Assembly (NCBI GenBank): GCA_000433315.1
Contig: FR893375.1
Coordinates: 10,718-74,717, forward strand
Length of the DNA: 64,000 nucleotides
Source: Firmicutes bacterium CAG:345
GTDB taxonomy: Bacteria > Bacillota_I > Bacilli_A > RFN20 > CAG-288
Reading direction: 5' to 3'
Within the stretch, counting starts at the first letter, position 1. Every line of letters starts with the position of its first letter. The notes under the pieces were generated by a model. The model did not search any database and was not told where the DNA came from. It saw only the letters and a list, made by a program, of their open reading frames with translations. Shown here piece by piece: positions 8,759-64,000 of this stretch. The position numbers and the translations under genes are program-made.

Positions 8759-11149
8759 TTATAAAGCTAAATTAGATTTATAGGTATCAATATCACTTTG
8801 AACTTTAGTAATTTCATCATTGAATGAAGTTTCATCGCCATCTTTTGTGACAGCCTTCATTTCAGACCAAGTCATTTCCATGCCTTCTGATCCAAATAAA
8901 GTTCCTATTTTTCCTGATTGAGCAGCAATATTTGTTCCAACGATTTTTAATTCATTATTTATATATAAATACGCCGAGGAATCTAAAACAACAAGTTTAA
9001 AACTAAACTCCATAGGTTCAACTAAATTATAAGAAGTAGAAGTACTTGGTGTATGATTGAAAGTCGCTGGATATAAAACTCCATTTTGCTTATTATCCCA
9101 TAATAAGAAACGAGTATCATAGCCTTCATTAAATCTAATTTCAATATGAGCATTAGGGTTATGTGCTGTAATAATCCATTTGCCTTCAAGAACAAAGTTT
9201 CTGTTTAAAATATTTCCATCACCATTGATAATAGTTGTAGAAGAACCTACTGCATCATATTTTTCTTTAGTTATATCTTCAATTTTACCTTGCCTTTTTG
9301 AATCAACAACGCATGTTGACTTATAAAAATCTATATCACCTTTTACTAATGAAATAGCATTATTATAAGCTCCTTCATCTGTCGCTTTATTAGCAACGGT
9401 TAAATTTTTCCAAGATACGGCAATGTTTTCACCACCAAATTTAATTGGAATTAAATCTGTTACATCTGGCAAATCAATAGCAACAGCTCTTAATGTTCCA
9501 TCGATATATAAATATGCATTATCATCAGTTACAACTAATTTAAACTTAACATTTAATTTTGAATCAAATTTATAACTGCTTGTTCCTCTGACATATCCAA
9601 AAGTAGCAACATCAAAAGAAGAAACATCACCACCATGGCCTCCCCAGAATAAAAATCTTTTTTCAGCATCTTCATTGAAGCAAATTTCAATATGAGGATT
9701 ATTGCCTAATTCTTTAATATCCCATCCTCCTTCAAGGACAAAGTTTCTAGAAAGAACAGTACCATTATCAAATAATGCTCTAGATTGGAGAACTGTATCT
9801 TCTAATGAAACATCAAAATCTTCTAATGATTTTTTAGTAGATTCTCCAATTTCACATCCAGCATTTAATAACTCATCAACAAAAATTTGATAATATTCAT
9901 TTTTAGGATGTGTATTATCTTTATACATCGATGGATCATGTCTATCAAATTTACTAGTGCTATCAACATATGTAATCCAATCTCTATCACCAGCCCATTT
10001 TTCCATTTCAGCATTAACAGCATCAACAATATCCCATTCACCATTATTTTGATAAGCTCTTTGAGTAATACCAAAATAATATAAATTTGTAGATGGATAA
10101 CTTTCATGGAATCTTCTTAATAATCTTTGAGTATTATTAATTGTTTGATTGATAGAAGCTTTATCATCATAGACATTATTTGTTCCTAAATGAATAGCAA
10201 TATTCTTTGGAGAATGATCGCCAAAAACTGTTTCATAATAAGTTTCCCAATCTTGTGTTGTTGTCGAAGATATGCCAAAAGCTTCTATATTATATTCAGG
10301 GAATTGTGTTGCATATCCTGTCCAGAAATTTCTGGCATCAAAATATGAATCTCCAACAAAATATGTTGTATCATCATTTTTATATTTTTTAGCAAGCTGC
10401 TTTGCATAACTTAAATAACCATTATCTTTATATTCGAAAGAATTTTCATCTACTTCATAGGCTATAACTTTAAACTTAGCACTATAGTGGGCACTTGTTG
10501 CTTCAACATCATACATACCTGCTTTTAATGGAGTAACAAGATGATTTTCTTCATCAATTTCTAAAGCTTTTGAATTATATTTATATGTCAGTTTTTCAAT
10601 ATGCTTTTCATTTTCATATTTTAAAACAAAATCTGATAATGGATAATTTCCTAAAGTTGCATAAACATTATTAATTGTCAATTTTCCATATTCTTGTAAT
10701 GTATTAACATAAAATTTAGTTTCAAAATGTATAGAAGATGCAGTAATCTCAACCATTTCGCCAACTTTTAAAACAGAAATAACATCATTTTCAATTTTTA
10801 TAGCTGTTTCATCATAAGTATAACTCAGTTTTTCACCCAAAGAACTATTTGAAAAAACAGGTTTAATTTCAAATGTATCATTTAAAGCTAAATCAATACT
10901 TTCAATACTAACTGTTCCATAATCAACATCGGTTGTTGAAGATGAACTTGAAGAAGATGATGAATTCAATGTGGAAGAACTAGTAGAAGAAGAACTTGAA
11001 GTAGAATTAGATGAAGTAGATGGTCTTACACTAGATGAACTTGTAGAAACACTTGAAGATGAACTACTAGATGAAGTAGTATTTCCACTACAAGATGCTA
11101 AAAGAGAAGGAAATAAAAGTAAACTTAATAATAAATATCTTTTTTTCAT
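8759..11149 (-). CDS. Large surface lipoprotein. Ser-rich linker, two Big_2-like Ig domains, an SGNH esterase domain and a tandem pair of about 130-aa lectin/jelly-roll-like C-terminal domains.
   Basis: MKKRYLLLSLLLFPSLLASCSG lipobox, then ~70 aa of poly-Ser. SGNH blocks YFVGDSYFD, HLGTNNV, DNTHP. Internal duplication NRNFVLEGGWDI...ICFNEDAEKRFLFWGG...KFKLVV..AYLYI versus NRNFVLEGKWII...IRFNEGYDTRFLLWDN...SFKLVV..AYLYI. Confidence 0.7.
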   Translation of the reverse strand: MKKRYLLLSLLLFPSLLASCSGNTTSSSSSSSSVSTSSSSVRPSTSSNSTSSSSSTSSSTLNSSSSSSSSSTTDVDYGTVSIESIDLALNDTFEIKPVFSNSSLGEKLSYTYDETAIKIENDVISVLKVGEMVEITASSIHFETKFYVNTLQEYGKLTINNVYATLGNYPLSDFVLKYENEKHIEKLTYKYNSKALEIDEENHLVTPLKAGMYDVEATSAHYSAKFKVIAYEVDENSFEYKDNGYLSYAKQLAKKYKNDDTTYFVGDSYFDARNFWTGYATQFPEYNIEAFGISSTTTQDWETYYETVFGDHSPKNIAIHLGTNNVYDDKASINQTINNTQRLLRRFHESYPSTNLYYFGITQRAYQNNGEWDIVDAVNAEMEKWAGDRDWITYVDSTSKFDRHDPSMYKDNTHPKNEYYQIFVDELLNAGCEIGESTKKSLEDFDVSLEDTVLQSRALFDNGTVLSRNFVLEGGWDIKELGNNPHIEICFNEDAEKRFLFWGGHGGDVSSFDVATFGYVRGTSSYKFDSKLNVKFKLVVTDDNAYLYIDGTLRAVAIDLPDVTDLIPIKFGGENIAVSWKNLTVANKATDEGAYNNAISLVKGDIDFYKSTCVVDSKRQGKIEDITKEKYDAVGSSTTIINGDGNILNRNFVLEGKWIITAHNPNAHIEIRFNEGYDTRFLLWDNKQNGVLYPATFNHTPSTSTSYNLVEPMEFSFKLVVLDSSAYLYINNELKIVGTNIAAQSGKIGTLFGSEGMEMTWSEMKAVTKDGDETSFNDEITKVQSDIDTYKSNLAL

Positions 11150-11653: not shown

Positions 11654-12745
11654 TTATTTCTTTAACAAAGAAGTTAATTGTGAAACAATATCTCCGCTTC
11701 CGGTAACATTGATGCTTCCAATTTTATCTGATATCTTTTCTATAAATTCCATTTCTTTCAACTTATATAAAGTTGGGTTATCTTCCATCAATTTTGCAGT
11801 ATTGAGTAAAGATCTTGTCGAAGCAACTTCTTCACGTCTAGTAATAACATTAGCTTGTGCTTTTTTAGTTGCAATTAAAACAGTATTCATAATATCACGC
11901 ATATCGCCAGGAAGAATAATATCTTTGATTCCTACCTCAGTAATTGTAATATAATTTTTCTTTAAATCATCTTTGATAGCATCAAAAATATAATTTGCCA
12001 TCTCATTTCTGCTGTCTAAAACTTCATCCAAAGTTTTAGTTCCAACATAATCACGTGCAGCAAATTGTAATTTTAAATATATTTGGCGACTGTAATCTTC
12101 ATAGCATTCTATTACTTTAACAGGATCATCAACAAGATAATTACAAACTATATTAACACGAATAGTTGCCTTATCCTGTGTTAAAACCTCTTGTCCTGTC
12201 ATATCGATATTTGTTTCTCTAACTGGTATATTCTCATATGTAACAACCTGAAGGTTTTTCCAATAAAAATATCTGCCTGGCTCTAAAACTTCAGATAATT
12301 TACCATCGATAAAGAGCAAGCCCTTTTTAAATTCTTCAATCATAACTGAAATGAAATATTTAGAAGGTATTTTCTCAAAAAGATAAATTGGAAAATCATC
12401 GGCTACTTTTGTATTTTTATAACTTGTTTTTATGAAAGTATTAACCCTATTTTCCTTTGAAAAAATATGCAAGCCACTTTCAAGAAAACAATCATAATTA
12501 TCATCAACAAAATGAACGCCATACTCTTGATCGCCAACTTCGTAAAAATCAAACAAATCTTTAGCGCCTTCTTTTTCTAAAATATCTCTTTTAGAGATAT
12601 ACTTAGAAGAAATTTCTGCATTTAAATTTATTACTTCAATAAATGTTGATGGAAAATGATGATAAAGTCCAGCTTTAACAAACTTGATAAAACGACCTTT
12701 TTTAAACAATAAACCAACTTGATTTTGCTTAACTAATGTTTTCAT
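11654..12745 (-). CDS. SPFH/band-7 (stomatin/flotillin-like) domain protein, soluble, with an N-terminal partial repeat of the first SPFH beta-hairpin.
   Basis: C-terminal two-thirds match an SPFH domain (IRVNIVCNYLVDDP...LDEVLDSRNEM...ITITEVGIKDIILPGDMRDIMN...RREEVASTRS). No TM segment. The N-terminus QVGLLFKKGRFIKFVKAGLYHHFP repeats FKKGLLFIDGKLSEVLEPGRYFYW. RBS aaaggagga. Confidence 0.7.
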   Translation of the reverse strand: MKTLVKQNQVGLLFKKGRFIKFVKAGLYHHFPSTFIEVINLNAEISSKYISKRDILEKEGAKDLFDFYEVGDQEYGVHFVDDNYDCFLESGLHIFSKENRVNTFIKTSYKNTKVADDFPIYLFEKIPSKYFISVMIEEFKKGLLFIDGKLSEVLEPGRYFYWKNLQVVTYENIPVRETNIDMTGQEVLTQDKATIRVNIVCNYLVDDPVKVIECYEDYSRQIYLKLQFAARDYVGTKTLDEVLDSRNEMANYIFDAIKDDLKKNYITITEVGIKDIILPGDMRDIMNTVLIATKKAQANVITRREEVASTRSLLNTAKLMEDNPTLYKLKEMEFIEKISDKIGSINVTGSGDIVSQLTSLLKK

Positions 12746-12989
12746 ATATTTCTAAATCCTCCTTTGTAAATTAAAGAAATCATCCAATTTCTAAAGCGGT
12801 CTAATAATTAAGTAGATTCGATTTTATAACGGGAGCTAAGCTATGGCTATAATTTCAAAAAAACGATATCCTCAAAAGAACAAGGCTTTTCGAAATTTGT
12901 CTTATCCGAAGATAAAACGGGATGATTGTAGTCAGTCTGTATCTCTATAGATCAAATAGTTCTTGATTTTTTACTAATGAAAAAACCGA

Positions 12990-13160
12990 GGTCAAAAAAG
13001 AACGCGGAGAGTCGAACTCCAAAAATCAATTTCGATTACAACGACCATGCTAGTTGTCGGGATTAAAATTAAAGGAATACACGAATGTGCACCGCAATAT
13101 CTTTTAGAAATATCCGCACTAATTTTTTTCCAAAACCATTATACCACATAGCAAAAAAGA
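12990..13160 (-). ncRNA. Candidate structured RNA or long 5' leader transcribed toward the SPFH gene. Identity unresolved.
   Basis: Extended -10 promoter TGgTATAAT on the minus strand (plus coordinates 13138..13146). Downstream RNA contains a tRNA-like T-arm (u)GGAG-UUCGACU-CUCC(g) at 13001..13017 and a UUCG-tetraloop hairpin at 12909..12928. 526 bp with no long ORF. Confidence 0.3.
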
Positions 13161-13271
13161 AATTATATATTCTTAGAATATAAAAACTTCGCCTGAATTT
13201 TTAATAATTCTCTTTTCCTTACGTTTAAAACAAGACTAAAATATGCTAAAATAAAATAAGAAAGGCAAATA

Positions 13272-14546
13272 ATGAATAACAAATTTCTTCAACTAAAAGC
13301 ATTGAAACAAATCATCGATGAAAAGAAATCATTTCAATCAGTTTTGGAAAATATTGTAAGACAAAACAACTTGTCAGAAAATGATAAGGTTGTTTTTAAG
13401 CTTGATGTCCTAGGCAGTCTGCGTCATTTCTATCAACTTCAATATGAAGCTACCAAAGAATTTCCAGAGTTTATGCCCGACGATGATGAAATTTACTTAA
13501 TAATTATTGCCTTATATGAGCTTCGCTATCATAGCAAAGATTTAGCTGGTTATGAAGTAATAAATCAAACAACAGCAACTATAAAATTTATGAGTCTCAG
13601 GTTAGATTCTGAACAAGTAAAAAATAAATTAGAAGAAATAACAAAAAAGAAATTTGTTTTGCCAGAAGATTTAAAAAAGGATCTCTATGCTTATAACGCT
13701 TTGTTTTTTAATACTCCGAAATGGATAATAGAACTTTTAACTTCTGAATATGGCGATGATATCTGTATGAATTTTCTTCTTTCAAGTCAGAGAAAAGGAT
13801 CTCAATATCTTGCAATAAATACAATTTACCGCAAAATTGAAGACTTCTCGAACGATGTAAGATTTATTCATCCTCAAGTTCTCAATACTGCTTTAGAATA
13901 TCAAACAGGTAAATGTTCTAATTTAATCGAAGTAAAAAAAGGGGATTTATTTCCACAAGATTTATCAACTCAAATTATGTTGAATTCTTTGAATTATTGT
14001 TTCAAGCAAAAAACTCTTCATATAGGAGCAAAATCTGGTTCCATCATGGCTGAAGTCGCTATCAGAATTCATGATAATGGTGGATATGTTGATGCACTTT
14101 TCTCCAATGACAAAAAGTACTCTTCGGCAAAATATCTTTCTAGAAGATTAGGATTAGATAATACCCATATATTTTATGGCAGTCTTAAAATGATGAAGAC
14201 ATATAGTCCTTATAACTCATATGATATGGTCATATATTCTCCTAACTCTTCAAAATTAGGACAAGTCAGAAGAAGACCTGATATATTTCCAACACTTCAA
14301 AAAGAAGACATCTTTAAATATTGTGCTAAGTCATCTATCGATTTAAATGAAGTGAAAAAATTTGTTGCTAGCGATAGCTATTTAATATATCATGTTCCAA
14401 CAATTACTAAAGAAGAAACAATAAATATCATCAAAGATTTTCTCAGCAAAAATGATGATTTTATCTTAGAATATGAAAGACAAATTTTTCCTTATGAATA
14501 TGGTTCTGATGGATTATATTTTGCAGTTTTGAAGAAAATAAAATAA
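13272..14546 (+). CDS. RsmB/Sun-family (NOL1/NOP2) 16S rRNA m5C methyltransferase homologue lacking both catalytic cysteines. Likely a pseudoenzyme.
   Basis: Occupies the rsmB position upstream of rlmN-stp-stk-rsgA-rpe. NusB-like N-terminus. Motif IV DMVIYSPNSSKLGQVRRRPDI aligns to D..LLDAPCSGTGVIRRHPDI (PCS to PNS). Motif VI YHVPTITKEE aligns to Y.TCS..PEEN (TCS to PTI). Motif I LHIGAKSGS is degenerate versus LDLCAAPGGKT. Confidence 0.6.
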   Translation: MNNKFLQLKALKQIIDEKKSFQSVLENIVRQNNLSENDKVVFKLDVLGSLRHFYQLQYEATKEFPEFMPDDDEIYLIIIALYELRYHSKDLAGYEVINQTTATIKFMSLRLDSEQVKNKLEEITKKKFVLPEDLKKDLYAYNALFFNTPKWIIELLTSEYGDDICMNFLLSSQRKGSQYLAINTIYRKIEDFSNDVRFIHPQVLNTALEYQTGKCSNLIEVKKGDLFPQDLSTQIMLNSLNYCFKQKTLHIGAKSGSIMAEVAIRIHDNGGYVDALFSNDKKYSSAKYLSRRLGLDNTHIFYGSLKMMKTYSPYNSYDMVIYSPNSSKLGQVRRRPDIFPTLQKEDIFKYCAKSSIDLNEVKKFVASDSYLIYHVPTITKEETINIIKDFLSKNDDFILEYERQIFPYEYGSDGLYFAVLKKIK

Positions 14547-49161: not shown

Positions 49162-49237
49162 GGATGCTTAGCTCAGTTGGGAGAGCGTTTCTTTCACACG
49201 GAAGAGGTCACAAGTTCGATCCTTGTAGTGTCCACCA
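49162..49237 (+). tRNA. tRNA-Val (anticodon CAC).
   Basis: Manual cloverleaf. Acceptor GGATGCT/AGTGTCC with two G-U pairs. D-arm GCTC-AGTTGGGA-GAGC. Anticodon loop TTCACAC. T-arm ACAAG-TTCGATC-CTTGT. Encoded CCA. 76 nt. Confidence 0.7.
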
Positions 49238-49252
49238 TAAATGAAAGCAATT

Positions 49253-49328
<76 letters not shown>

Positions 49329-63167: not shown

Positions 63168-63812
63168 TTAACCTATAATTAATTGAACTTGCTTCGTCAT
63201 TTTTTGTAATGGAATATATAAAGCTCCACCAATAACTAATACAGCGGCTAAACTAATTGCATTATATGGAAGGTTATAATATACAAAAGAATAATAGAAT
63301 GGTTGCATATTATCAGGAGCATATTCTCCAAAAAGAAAAGCACCAGAAATAGAAGATGATAGATATTTAATTACAAATCCAAGAATTGCAGCAACGAAGA
63401 ATGACCAAGGTTTATTCTTATAATATAACTTTGAAAATAAACCACCCATTAATCCTATACCAGCAAAAGGAATAATATAATCAAGAAATACAGATGCCCA
63501 ATGATAAACAACACCATCCATCATAAGATTGATTAAACTATAACAAGCACCTACAACAAAACCATAAACAGGTCCTAAATAAAGTCCAGAAATAACTATT
63601 CCTAGCCCTTCAAGTGAGATAGAACCACCCTGTGGCATTTTTGGTAACCCATAAGTTAAAAAAGATAGTACAAAACTTAATGCCACAAATAAAGCAGACA
63701 TTGATAATTTTCTAATTTGTCGTCTAACTTTGTAACCATCAACACTTTTTGAATTAGGATGCTTAACAATCTTTTTTTCTTCTAATTCACTTTGCAAATT
63801 CTCTGTATCCAT
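63168..63812 (-). CDS. thiT: ECF transporter substrate-specific S component, probably thiamine-specific (ThiT-like) given the upstream TPP riboswitch.
   Basis: About 6 TM helices and of S-component size. Strong RBS aaggagg. TPP riboswitch immediately upstream. The EcfAA'T module is encoded at 31631..34207. Confidence 0.65.
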   Translation of the reverse strand: MDTENLQSELEEKKIVKHPNSKSVDGYKVRRQIRKLSMSALFVALSFVLSFLTYGLPKMPQGGSISLEGLGIVISGLYLGPVYGFVVGACYSLINLMMDGVVYHWASVFLDYIIPFAGIGLMGGLFSKLYYKNKPWSFFVAAILGFVIKYLSSSISGAFLFGEYAPDNMQPFYYSFVYYNLPYNAISLAAVLVIGGALYIPLQKMTKQVQLIIG

Positions 63813-63854
63813 TAAAAAACCTCCTTGAAAGCAAAGAGGCAAACAAAACAAAAT

Positions 63855-63945
63855 TATGTTATCTCTTCGCTAGCATTATCTAGATCAGATACGGTCGATT
63901 CAACATCAGAATCCTCTCAGCCTTATGTTTAAAGCTCCCATAAAA
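63855..63945 (-). promoter_or_regulatory. TPP (thiamine pyrophosphate) riboswitch.
   Basis: Minus-strand GGGAGC...GGCUGAGAGGAUUCUGAUGUUGAAUCGACCGUAUCUGAUCUAGAUAAUGCUAGCGAAGAGAU matches the THI-box consensus (CUGAGA ... ACCnnnnnCUGAUCUGGAUAAUGCCAGCGnAGGGA). Confidence 0.85.
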
Positions 63946-64000
63946 AGTATAATTTTTTACTCAATATTTTTCAAGATAATTTTATAATCCGTGCTTATCT

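Follow-up and report, generated by a model that had tools for sequence, protein, structure and literature searches.

A 526-bp gap (12746-13271) separates the start of a slipin-family SPFH gene on the minus strand (12745) from the start of rsmB on the plus strand (13272) in Firmicutes bacterium CAG:345, and the question raised by this locus is what the gap contains. The window analyzed here is a stretch of 64,000 nt from contig FR893375.1, and coordinates are window positions unless a related locus is named. A preliminary description had proposed that the gap, reported as free of open reading frames (ORFs), gives rise to a structured RNA or a long leader of the SPFH gene, starting from the extended -10 element TGgTATAAT. 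An ORF scan of the gap bore out the first point, returning frames of 32-39 codons only, and the promoter, a covarying T-arm and a 121-nt domain of 35 base pairs were all found in relatives, in agreement with the second. We propose, with a probability of about 0.7 for the explanation as a whole, that positions 12746-13146 of the minus strand comprise the promoter and an approximately 390-nt 5' leader of the slipin gene, and that this leader is a divergent member of a widespread family of structured leaders. Its identity as a conserved structured leader is very probable; that it works by a cis-regulatory mechanism may well be so, and we place this slightly above even odds.

The closest relatives of the neighboring gene were of little use for comparison. 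The nearest RsmB homologues (41-55% identity) have mfd/pth or priA upstream of rsmB, neither a slipin gene nor similar DNA was found upstream of rsmB in the closest of them, and no slipin homologue of more than 47% identity was found. Slipin and its leader are therefore best regarded as a lineage-specific insertion at this site, so that the informative comparison is with other slipin genes and not with rsmB synteny; anchoring on slipin exposed the family. When the leader of the window was compared by nhmmer and blastn with the 700 nt that precede slipin genes, colinear matches appeared in Dielma fastidiosa, in Erysipelotrichaceae and "Mollicutes" metagenome-assembled genomes (MAGs), and in several Clostridia. 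A slipin alignment scan with one genome per species identified at least 599 confirmed relatives, from which the best 80 loci were kept. An exact pattern placed the blocks GCCUUG...GGAUAYCG 130-155 nt ahead of the slipin start in 22 loci, and a looser pattern did so in 32. In a pattern scan of metagenomes, 3 of the 80 matches listed were confirmed by the covariance model, the rest being mostly chance, and all three confirmed matches were followed by a slipin start. One locus (L099, 3257-4312) switches after 25 slipin codons to a type-IIA topoisomerase-like (TOPRIM) frame, which probably reflects a chimeric assembly or a sequence inserted into slipin.

The strongest evidence for a conserved RNA comes from the 3' part of the leader. 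A covariance model of this domain, R1, found it in 68 of the 80 kept species-level slipin loci (E<=4e-8), always upstream of slipin and on the slipin strand, and found no match in the rsmB-relative loci or in the rest of the window. The window itself scored 71.6 bits with R1. Since the window was in the R1 seed, a leave-one-out model, R3, was rebuilt without it; R3 matched 12783-12902 on the minus strand over its full length (64.7 bits, E=3.3e-16), the only match in the window. At 121 nt, the domain of the window has the same length as that of most relatives. The structure refined by hand has 35 pairs, divided among P1 (10 bp), P2 (3 bp), a lone G-C pair, P3 (8), P4 (4), P5 (5) and P5a (4). 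Its conserved unpaired parts are GCCUUG, GGAUAUCG, CCA, CCCG, CUUAA and ACCGC, and the window keeps all of them together with most of the pairs.

Covariation supported this structure in two alignments. RNAalifold called 25 pairs, 22 of them with compensatory changes. When the 35-pair structure was placed on 30 sequences aligned with MAFFT, 84.9% of cells were paired compared to 40-46% in controls in which the structure was slid along the alignment, and there were 264 double-change cells compared to 88 in shuffles and 73-109 in slid controls. With 73 sequences fitted to the model, 89.4% of cells were paired (33-46% in slid controls), the covariation score was 0.78 (0.10-0.14), and double-change cells numbered 828, against 252 in shuffles and approximately 180 in slid controls. 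The helices that define the family are thus conserved among related genomes. The preliminary description had also pointed to a weak hairpin followed by seven U residues as a possible attenuator. The U7 run is present at 12857-12863; the attenuator is not supported, because hairpin and run together are the AU-rich local version of P3/GGAUAYCG/P4, and relatives lack a U-run there as well as a terminator ahead of the start codon. An 8-bp stem with a UUCG tetraloop, which had been placed at 12909-12928, does exist and lies at 12899-12918. Its sequence is not conserved. On visual inspection, a small, unrelated hairpin lies immediately 5' of P1 in some relatives, and position alone may thus be what is shared.

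One related locus departs from the usual form of the domain. In an Oscillospiraceae MAG (L029, approximately 2767-2868) an insertion of about 100 nt lies in the 3' domain right after GGAUACCGUGUUA, and R1 matches model positions 38-95 only; the insertion could be a small mobile element or an assembly artefact.

The family shows a fixed order of parts: an extended -10 element, a 5' hairpin block, a tRNA-like module, a variable linker, the 121-nt rod of six helices and the ribosome-binding site of the first gene of the operon. The window retains the promoter, a shortened candidate for the 5' block, the T-arm, the 3' domain and the ribosome-binding site. The proposed promoter TGgTATAAT was found exactly where described (13138-13146, minus strand). 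Among related loci, a -10 hexamer is present in 50 of 50, at 39-59 nt upstream of the 5' hairpin block (approximately 90 nt in two loci); 38 of the 50 have the TG extension, typically as TGGTAAAAT, and a TGAAAA-like -35 element is usual. In the window, TGGTATAAT stands 43 nt upstream of the 5' block, the position of the putative promoter in the family, and on this spacing we assign it to the family promoter; transcription would then start at approximately 13131.

The 5' block has the family consensus CGGUGCRY-(GA-GG..CC-AAA)-RYGUAU and occurs on the sense strand of 50 of the 80 slipin loci, with a single chance match on the antisense strand. Its stem variants GUGCGC/GCGUAU, GUGCAU/AUGUAU and GUACAC/GUGUAU covary. 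The candidate copy in the window keeps the base stem GUGCAC/GUGUAU and its flanks and has lost the distal GA-GG..CC-AAA extension. Ahead of it, the hairpin at 13097-13113 sits where relatives have a variable hairpin before a conserved GCGG, and its sequence is not conserved; the region between block and T-arm (13022-13076) is the counterpart of a stretch of variable length in relatives. An acceptor-like pairing of GUGCACG with the sequence after the T-arm was considered and rejected: it can form in some genomes and not in L052 or L028, and local hairpins covary instead.

At the inferred transcription start of relatives, the first 15 nt or so of the RNA contain a near-invariant UUGCAAGG (for example, L026 at approximately 2551-2575), often within the palindrome CTTGCAAG and the inverted repeat GCTTG..CAAGC. 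This sequence is complementary to the invariant CCUUGC bulge of the 3' domain, the complement being present in 31 of 51 loci compared to approximately 0.16 expected per stretch. CCUUG never varies, and a long-range pairing between the two is therefore beyond the reach of covariation. UUGCAAGG could be an RNA partner of the bulge or, as a palindrome in the DNA at the start site, an operator for a repressor.

The tRNA-like module was recognized from its T-arm. The hairpin seen in the preliminary description is real, and it is a family feature with a covarying stem; its position is 13005-13021 and not 13001-13017. A canonical T-arm is present in 61 of 70 related leaders, with the stem 100% paired across relatives and double changes at four of the five pairs. 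In the family, a closed acceptor-like hairpin of 6-9 bp comes immediately after the T-arm, and then a D-like arm, whose stems covary (CCA/UGG, CCG/CGG, CCU/AGG) and whose loop contains GG. In the alignment of the module, 87.6-91% of cells were paired, and a model of it, R2, gave E<1e-3 in 55 related loci, including Flavobacterium and Larkinella loci that lack the Firmicute 3' domain. In the window, R2 matched the T-loop core only (13007-13019, 7.4 bits), with no full-length match. The acceptor-like hairpin and the D-like stem are degenerate here and have decayed into U-runs, so the module of CAG:345 is eroded to its T-arm.

The two Bacteroidota loci, from Flavobacterium sp. xlx-214 and Larkinella knui (L091, 2596-2680, and L094, 2624-2680), carry the tRNA-like module approximately 350-400 nt upstream of slipin, and the Firmicute 121-nt domain was not detected in either of them. 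These observations suggest that they represent a second leader variant and that the tRNA mimic is the older, shared part.

The leader also keeps a constant distance to the gene that follows it. From the end of the 3' domain to the start codon there are 37 nt in the window and 37-47 nt in most relatives, and in both this interval holds a plain AGGAGG and no terminator. In four loci (L066, L057, L080 and L027) slipin is not the first gene: an unannotated gene with a product of 205-227 aa lies between it and the leader, which then ends 31-42 nt before that gene; two small ORFs precede slipin in L078, with a looser spacing of approximately 84 nt. Because the spacing to the first gene is kept even when that gene is not slipin, the leader behaves as a 5' untranslated region (UTR) element of the slipin operon. 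The extra gene, found in several Clostridia, ends about 18 nt before slipin and overlaps the slipin start in L080. The N-terminal regions of its products look related by eye, the product from L066 had no Pfam match, and the gene may encode a functional partner of slipin.

In the window, a 13-codon sense ORF (12742-12783, minus strand; AUG AUU UCU ... AUA UGA) begins in the last bases of the 3' domain, and its stop overlaps the slipin start (AUGA). It has no Shine-Dalgarno sequence ahead of it, its start codon is missing from several relatives, and it is probably fortuitous. A conserved sense upstream ORF beginning at an AUG or GUG after P1 was rejected, the start codon being absent in L065, L058 and L048.

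Several results weigh against our reading of the gap as a slipin leader, or limit it. The predicted folding energy of the leader was no better than that of shuffled sequences (z=-0.26 for the whole; -0.4, -2.1 and 0.0 for its parts), so folding of the single sequence is uninformative, and the significance of the structure rests on the comparison across genomes, in which the promoter, the 5' block, the T-arm and above all the 3' domain recur in order and with covariation. The shuffle controls in that comparison ignore relatedness; the slid controls account for it and are far lower than the observed values. No conserved helix sequestering the Shine-Dalgarno sequence and no terminator was found, and the conserved 5' UUGCAAGG of relatives is absent from the window. 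Within the species, none of the 121 positions of the 3' domain is variable, compared to approximately two expected, which is too little variation to show selection. The transcription start and cotranscription with slipin are deduced from the conserved position and spacing of the promoter, and the erosion of the tRNA-like module may mean that the copy in the window works differently or only partly. Finally, full-text literature searches (slipin, SPFH, stomatin or tRNA-like combined with RNA motif; four motif-discovery papers) returned no description of this RNA; most subscription journals lie outside that coverage, and a prior description is possible.

We hypothesize that the leader is transcribed as part of the slipin mRNA and would act in cis. 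The 3' domain would fold into a defined shape beside an unstructured ribosome-binding site and, alone or with a ligand or factor, would set translation initiation, mRNA stability or both for the operon. The invariant internal loops could serve as a binding or tertiary site, and the tRNA-like elbow could provide a surface for docking within the RNA or a point of attachment for a factor that binds tRNA. Expression would then depend on P1/P3, GCCUUG and GGAUACCG. A bolder version makes the tRNA mimic essential, either in a riboswitch-like sensor of the SPFH operon, working through an internal elbow or a tRNA-binding factor, or as the RNA subunit of a vault- or Y-RNA-like slipin ribonucleoprotein (RNP) made from one transcript; we consider it unlikely. 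The parts of the leader and the genes downstream of it are listed in Table 1.

Table 1. Positions of the leader elements and associated genes (window coordinates; the last four lines use the coordinates of the related locus named)
Feature	Position	Strand	Detection or placement
Extended -10 promoter TGGTATAAT	13138..13146	-	Read directly, exact match
5'-proximal hairpin AUAUUU-CUAAA-AGAUAU	13097..13113	-	Minimum free energy fold
5' block CGGUGCAC-AUUC-GUGUAU	13077..13094	-	Sole match of the regular expression in the 64-kb window
Variable region with AU-rich hairpins	13022..13076	-	No conservation detected
T-arm UGGAG-UUCGACU-CUCCG	13005..13021	-	Read directly, hairpin scan
U-rich stretch CGUUCUUUUUUGACCUCGGUUUUUUC	12975..13004	-	Acceptor-like hairpin and D-like arm here in relatives
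8-bp hairpin with UUCG tetraloop	12899..12918	-	Directly 5' of P1; read directly and by folding
Conserved 121-nt 3' domain (P1, P2, P3, P4, P5, P5a)	12782..12902	-	Covariance models
Shine-Dalgarno GGAGG of slipin	12758..12762	-	20 nt past the end of the 3' domain
Slipin-family SPFH gene, 363 aa	11654..12745	-	Pfam Band_7, 1.9e-29; NCBI "slipin family protein"
Extra gene before slipin, L066	2360-2977		
Extra gene before slipin, L057	2330-2977		
Extra gene before slipin, L080	2340-3023		
Extra gene before slipin, L027	2345-2983		

No known RNA family accounts for the region. In the leader, whether of the window or of 20 related loci, no Rfam 15 family reached its gathering threshold; across the whole window, the only ones to do so were two tRNAs and a thiamine pyrophosphate (TPP) riboswitch, all elsewhere. 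Relaxing the search to E<=10 gave noise in the gap region (at most 18.6 bits), and in relatives it gave T-arm fragments and a YrlA match of 14.2 bits (L026) only. One candidate within the 3' domain, the rhtB small RNA (sRNA; RF01814), aligned to 12802-12874 with 18.4 bits (E=4.7; gathering threshold, 55) and was rejected; the shared string AGCCAU..UUAGCUCCCG falls in P5/P5a. As the preliminary description had noted from inspection, there is no tRNA, transfer-messenger RNA (tmRNA) or RNase P RNA in the gap: ARAGORN found neither of the first two, and Rfam none of the three.

The likeness to tRNA and tmRNA is confined to the T-arm. The hairpin has a 5-bp stem, a loop of the UUCGAAU type (UUCGACU in the window) and a G53-C61-type closure, and it is the only part to which the Rfam tmRNA and tRNA models align; unlike those RNAs, the window has no cloverleaf, acceptor ends or tag ORF. 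A tRNA gene was rejected because ARAGORN and RF00005 found only the two real tRNAs of the window, with no match in the gap region at E<=10, and a tmRNA because neither ARAGORN nor Rfam matched the region and in relatives the 18-nt T-arm alone aligns. Related loci did yield a 30-bit pseudo-tRNA by Rfam (L070) and two odd "tRNAs" forced by ARAGORN, with anticodons at positions 37 and 40. The genuine genes, tRNA-Val(CAC) and tRNA-Thr(UGU), lie side by side at 49162-49328 on the plus strand; their T-arms differ from that of the leader, and the leader hairpin is therefore not a copy of either. Also rejected was a remnant of a tRNA 3' end or attachment site, for which the acceptor strand would begin AAGAACG; relatives show a closed hairpin and a D-like arm at this place.

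The closest parallel to the module is YrlA (RF02553). The family module has the same permuted order, with the T-arm, a closed acceptor-like hairpin and a D-like arm with a GG loop, an arrangement that can form a tRNA elbow, and cmscan aligned the L026 leader to YrlA in exactly this register. The differences are that the L026 score of 14.2 bits is far below the gathering threshold of 69 and the window gives no match; that no Ro-binding stem was seen and no rsr (TROVE) gene is present among the window neighbors; and that YrlA lacks the 5' hairpin block and the 121-nt 3' domain that flank the module in slipin leaders. In general design, the slipin leader resembles the orphan riboswitch-type leaders of Firmicutes (yjdF, ydaO and raiA types), being a long covarying multihelix RNA of conserved, aptamer-like architecture, with invariant internal loops and its own promoter, that occupies the 5' UTR immediately before the genes of a single family. 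In contrast to them, it holds a tRNA mimic, and no terminator or platform sequestering the Shine-Dalgarno sequence was recognized. The slipin leader is thus a family absent from Rfam 15, a structured 5' leader with a YrlA-like tRNA mimic, and the copy in the window is a reduced member.

The alternative that survives best holds that the RNA is a structural or functional partner of slipin itself, the two being made from one transcript and assembled into an RNP, perhaps after the RNA is cut off the mRNA, with the tRNA-like elbow and the rod domain as protein-binding surfaces. There are precedents for such pairs: YrlA is encoded beside Ro (Rsr), OLE RNA beside the Oap proteins, and vault RNA is associated with the SPFH-containing major vault protein. 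The linkage of RNA and slipin is tight across Firmicutes, the module has the YrlA arrangement, it stands upstream of slipin even in the two Bacteroidota loci without the Firmicute 3' domain, and the failure to find a platform that sequesters the Shine-Dalgarno sequence or a terminator would be natural for a partner RNA. In the predicted structure of slipin (predicted local distance difference test score, 82), beta repeats at the N terminus are combined with an SPFH domain and a long helix, as in a vault protein, and with Foldseek the major vault protein gave the longest alignments (420-469 columns, E of approximately 1e-9), although stomatin and HflK/C scored best. That resemblance comes largely from the shared SPFH fold, and the parallel with vaults, a structured RNA tied to a protein of beta repeats, SPFH fold and long helix, is an analogy only. 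Furthermore, the spacing of 31-47 nt to the first start codon is fixed even for a gene other than slipin, which fits a 5'-UTR element better, and no processing site or terminator that would release the RNA was found. We therefore regard an RNP as rather unlikely and prefer the leader of the slipin operon.

A second alternative divides the gap in two. A short independent sRNA of approximately 130 nt would end at the T-arm hairpin and its U-runs (approximately 12996-13004), slipin would use a nearer promoter, and the upstream half would be uncoupled from the 3' domain in CAG:345 only. In a simple scan the T-arm with the CGUUCUUUUUUGACCUCGGUUUUUUC stretch, or with CGTTCTTTTT, looks terminator-like; a weak promoter-like TAGCCA-17-TAAAAT is present at 12849-12821; and the acceptor and D-like parts have decayed to U-runs in this lineage only. 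Against this, the stem has only 5 bp and lies 5 nt from the U-run, relatives have no U-run at this position, and the internal promoter lies within the 3' domain, so that transcription from it would cut short a domain that, at 64.7 bits by R3, is otherwise complete. A separate sRNA is accordingly quite improbable compared with a continuous leader.

The tRNA-related features of the RNA also raise the matter of a T-box-like riboswitch that senses tRNA. The evidence for it is a likeness: the 7-nt bulge GGAUACC and the G(U/C)G that follows it in the leader seem to resemble the T-box antiterminator bulge UGGNACC-GCG, which pairs with the 3' end of tRNA. In addition, the slipin leaders occur mainly in Firmicutes and, like T-boxes, are long and have a link to tRNA. 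No Rfam T-box match was obtained at E<=10 for the window region or for L026, a relative of normal GC content; there is no specifier loop, Stem I platform or terminator/antiterminator pair; the nucleotide before GG is variable and paired; and slipin has no link to aminoacylation or amino acid supply. These features make a T-box very improbable.

The gap might instead be an ordinary spacer, composed of two divergent promoters and chance hairpins, a decayed tRNA gene or a remnant of the integration that brought in slipin. Synteny at the locus is not shared by the nearest RsmB relatives (mfd or priA upstream), the slipin protein has no homologue above 47% identity and may have been acquired, the folding z-scores are unremarkable, and TGNTATAAT is not enriched in the window (9 occurrences; 9.5 expected). 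A spacer would not be matched at E=3e-16 by a covariance model built from other genomes, and its family would not hold hundreds of compensatory changes; in relatives, the T-arm is followed by a closed hairpin and a D-like arm and not by a tRNA 3' end, with a conserved promoter ahead. We give this explanation hardly any credence. Least probable of all is that the plus strand encodes the basic peptide of 34 codons mentioned in the preliminary description: the ORF (12843-12950) and its upstream GGGAG motif exist, yet it runs antisense to the covarying 3' domain and has no Pfam match, and no promoter was found ahead of it on the plus strand. Relatives have no conserved version of it, the longest antisense ORFs of 24 of them ranging from 7 to 124 codons with no shared sequence.

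To our knowledge, bacteria have few large RNAs that show many covarying helices and lack an assigned function. Earlier examples have repeatedly opened new biology, among them riboswitch ligands, OLE, ROOL/GOLLD and the Y RNAs. The RNA described here is widespread, and it is linked to one protein family, the soluble SPFH proteins of the slipin type, which are poorly understood. It offers a concrete way into the function of slipins and the timing of their synthesis. It would also provide a second, independent context for bacterial tRNA mimics, as we found no description of a YrlA-style mimic inside an mRNA leader of bacteria. Cultured carriers include Dielma fastidiosa, Robinsoniella peoriensis, Oscillibacter valericigenes and Hominibacterium faecale, which makes the proposal directly testable. 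For annotation, the leader accounts for a 526-bp stretch left blank in the genome of a highly prevalent organism.

The slipin and RlmN proteins have exact matches in a Bacilli MAG, Firmicutes bacterium CAG:345, which identifies the source. An identical slipin protein was indexed in 2,548 blocks of an assembly collection and also occurs on a 1.67-Mb contig. The gap in ten other strains is nearly identical to that in the window, and the few differences include the T-arm stem variants GGGG..CCCU and GGAG..CCCU. Residues 1-175 of slipin contain two or three repeats that are rich in beta structure and reminiscent of the first part of the SPFH domain (NQVGLLFKKGRF... and FKKGLLFIDGKL...), and no N-terminal membrane anchor is obvious in the protein, though no search for one was made. 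Around the gap, the genes are slipin, rsmB (13272-14546, plus strand), rlmN, a PP2C phosphatase, a kinase, rsgA, rpe and GDSL lipases. No repeats or mobile-element copies of the region were found elsewhere in the window. The divergent genes and a local dip in GC skew prompted us to consider a replication origin, which was rejected because GC skew declines along the entire window and the genes are of mixed orientation.

Two further features were observed away from the gap. The TPP riboswitch (RF00059) lies at the right-hand end of the window (63845-63951, minus strand), where it adjoins a minus-strand ORF (63168-63851); at 56.4 bits it barely exceeds the gathering threshold of 54.3. On the other side of slipin, a gene at 8759-11149 on the minus strand is predicted to encode a lipoprotein of 796 aa, in which a signal peptide and a very long linker rich in Ser and Thr precede a GDSL lipase domain, and the C terminus holds two repeats of approximately 150 aa each.

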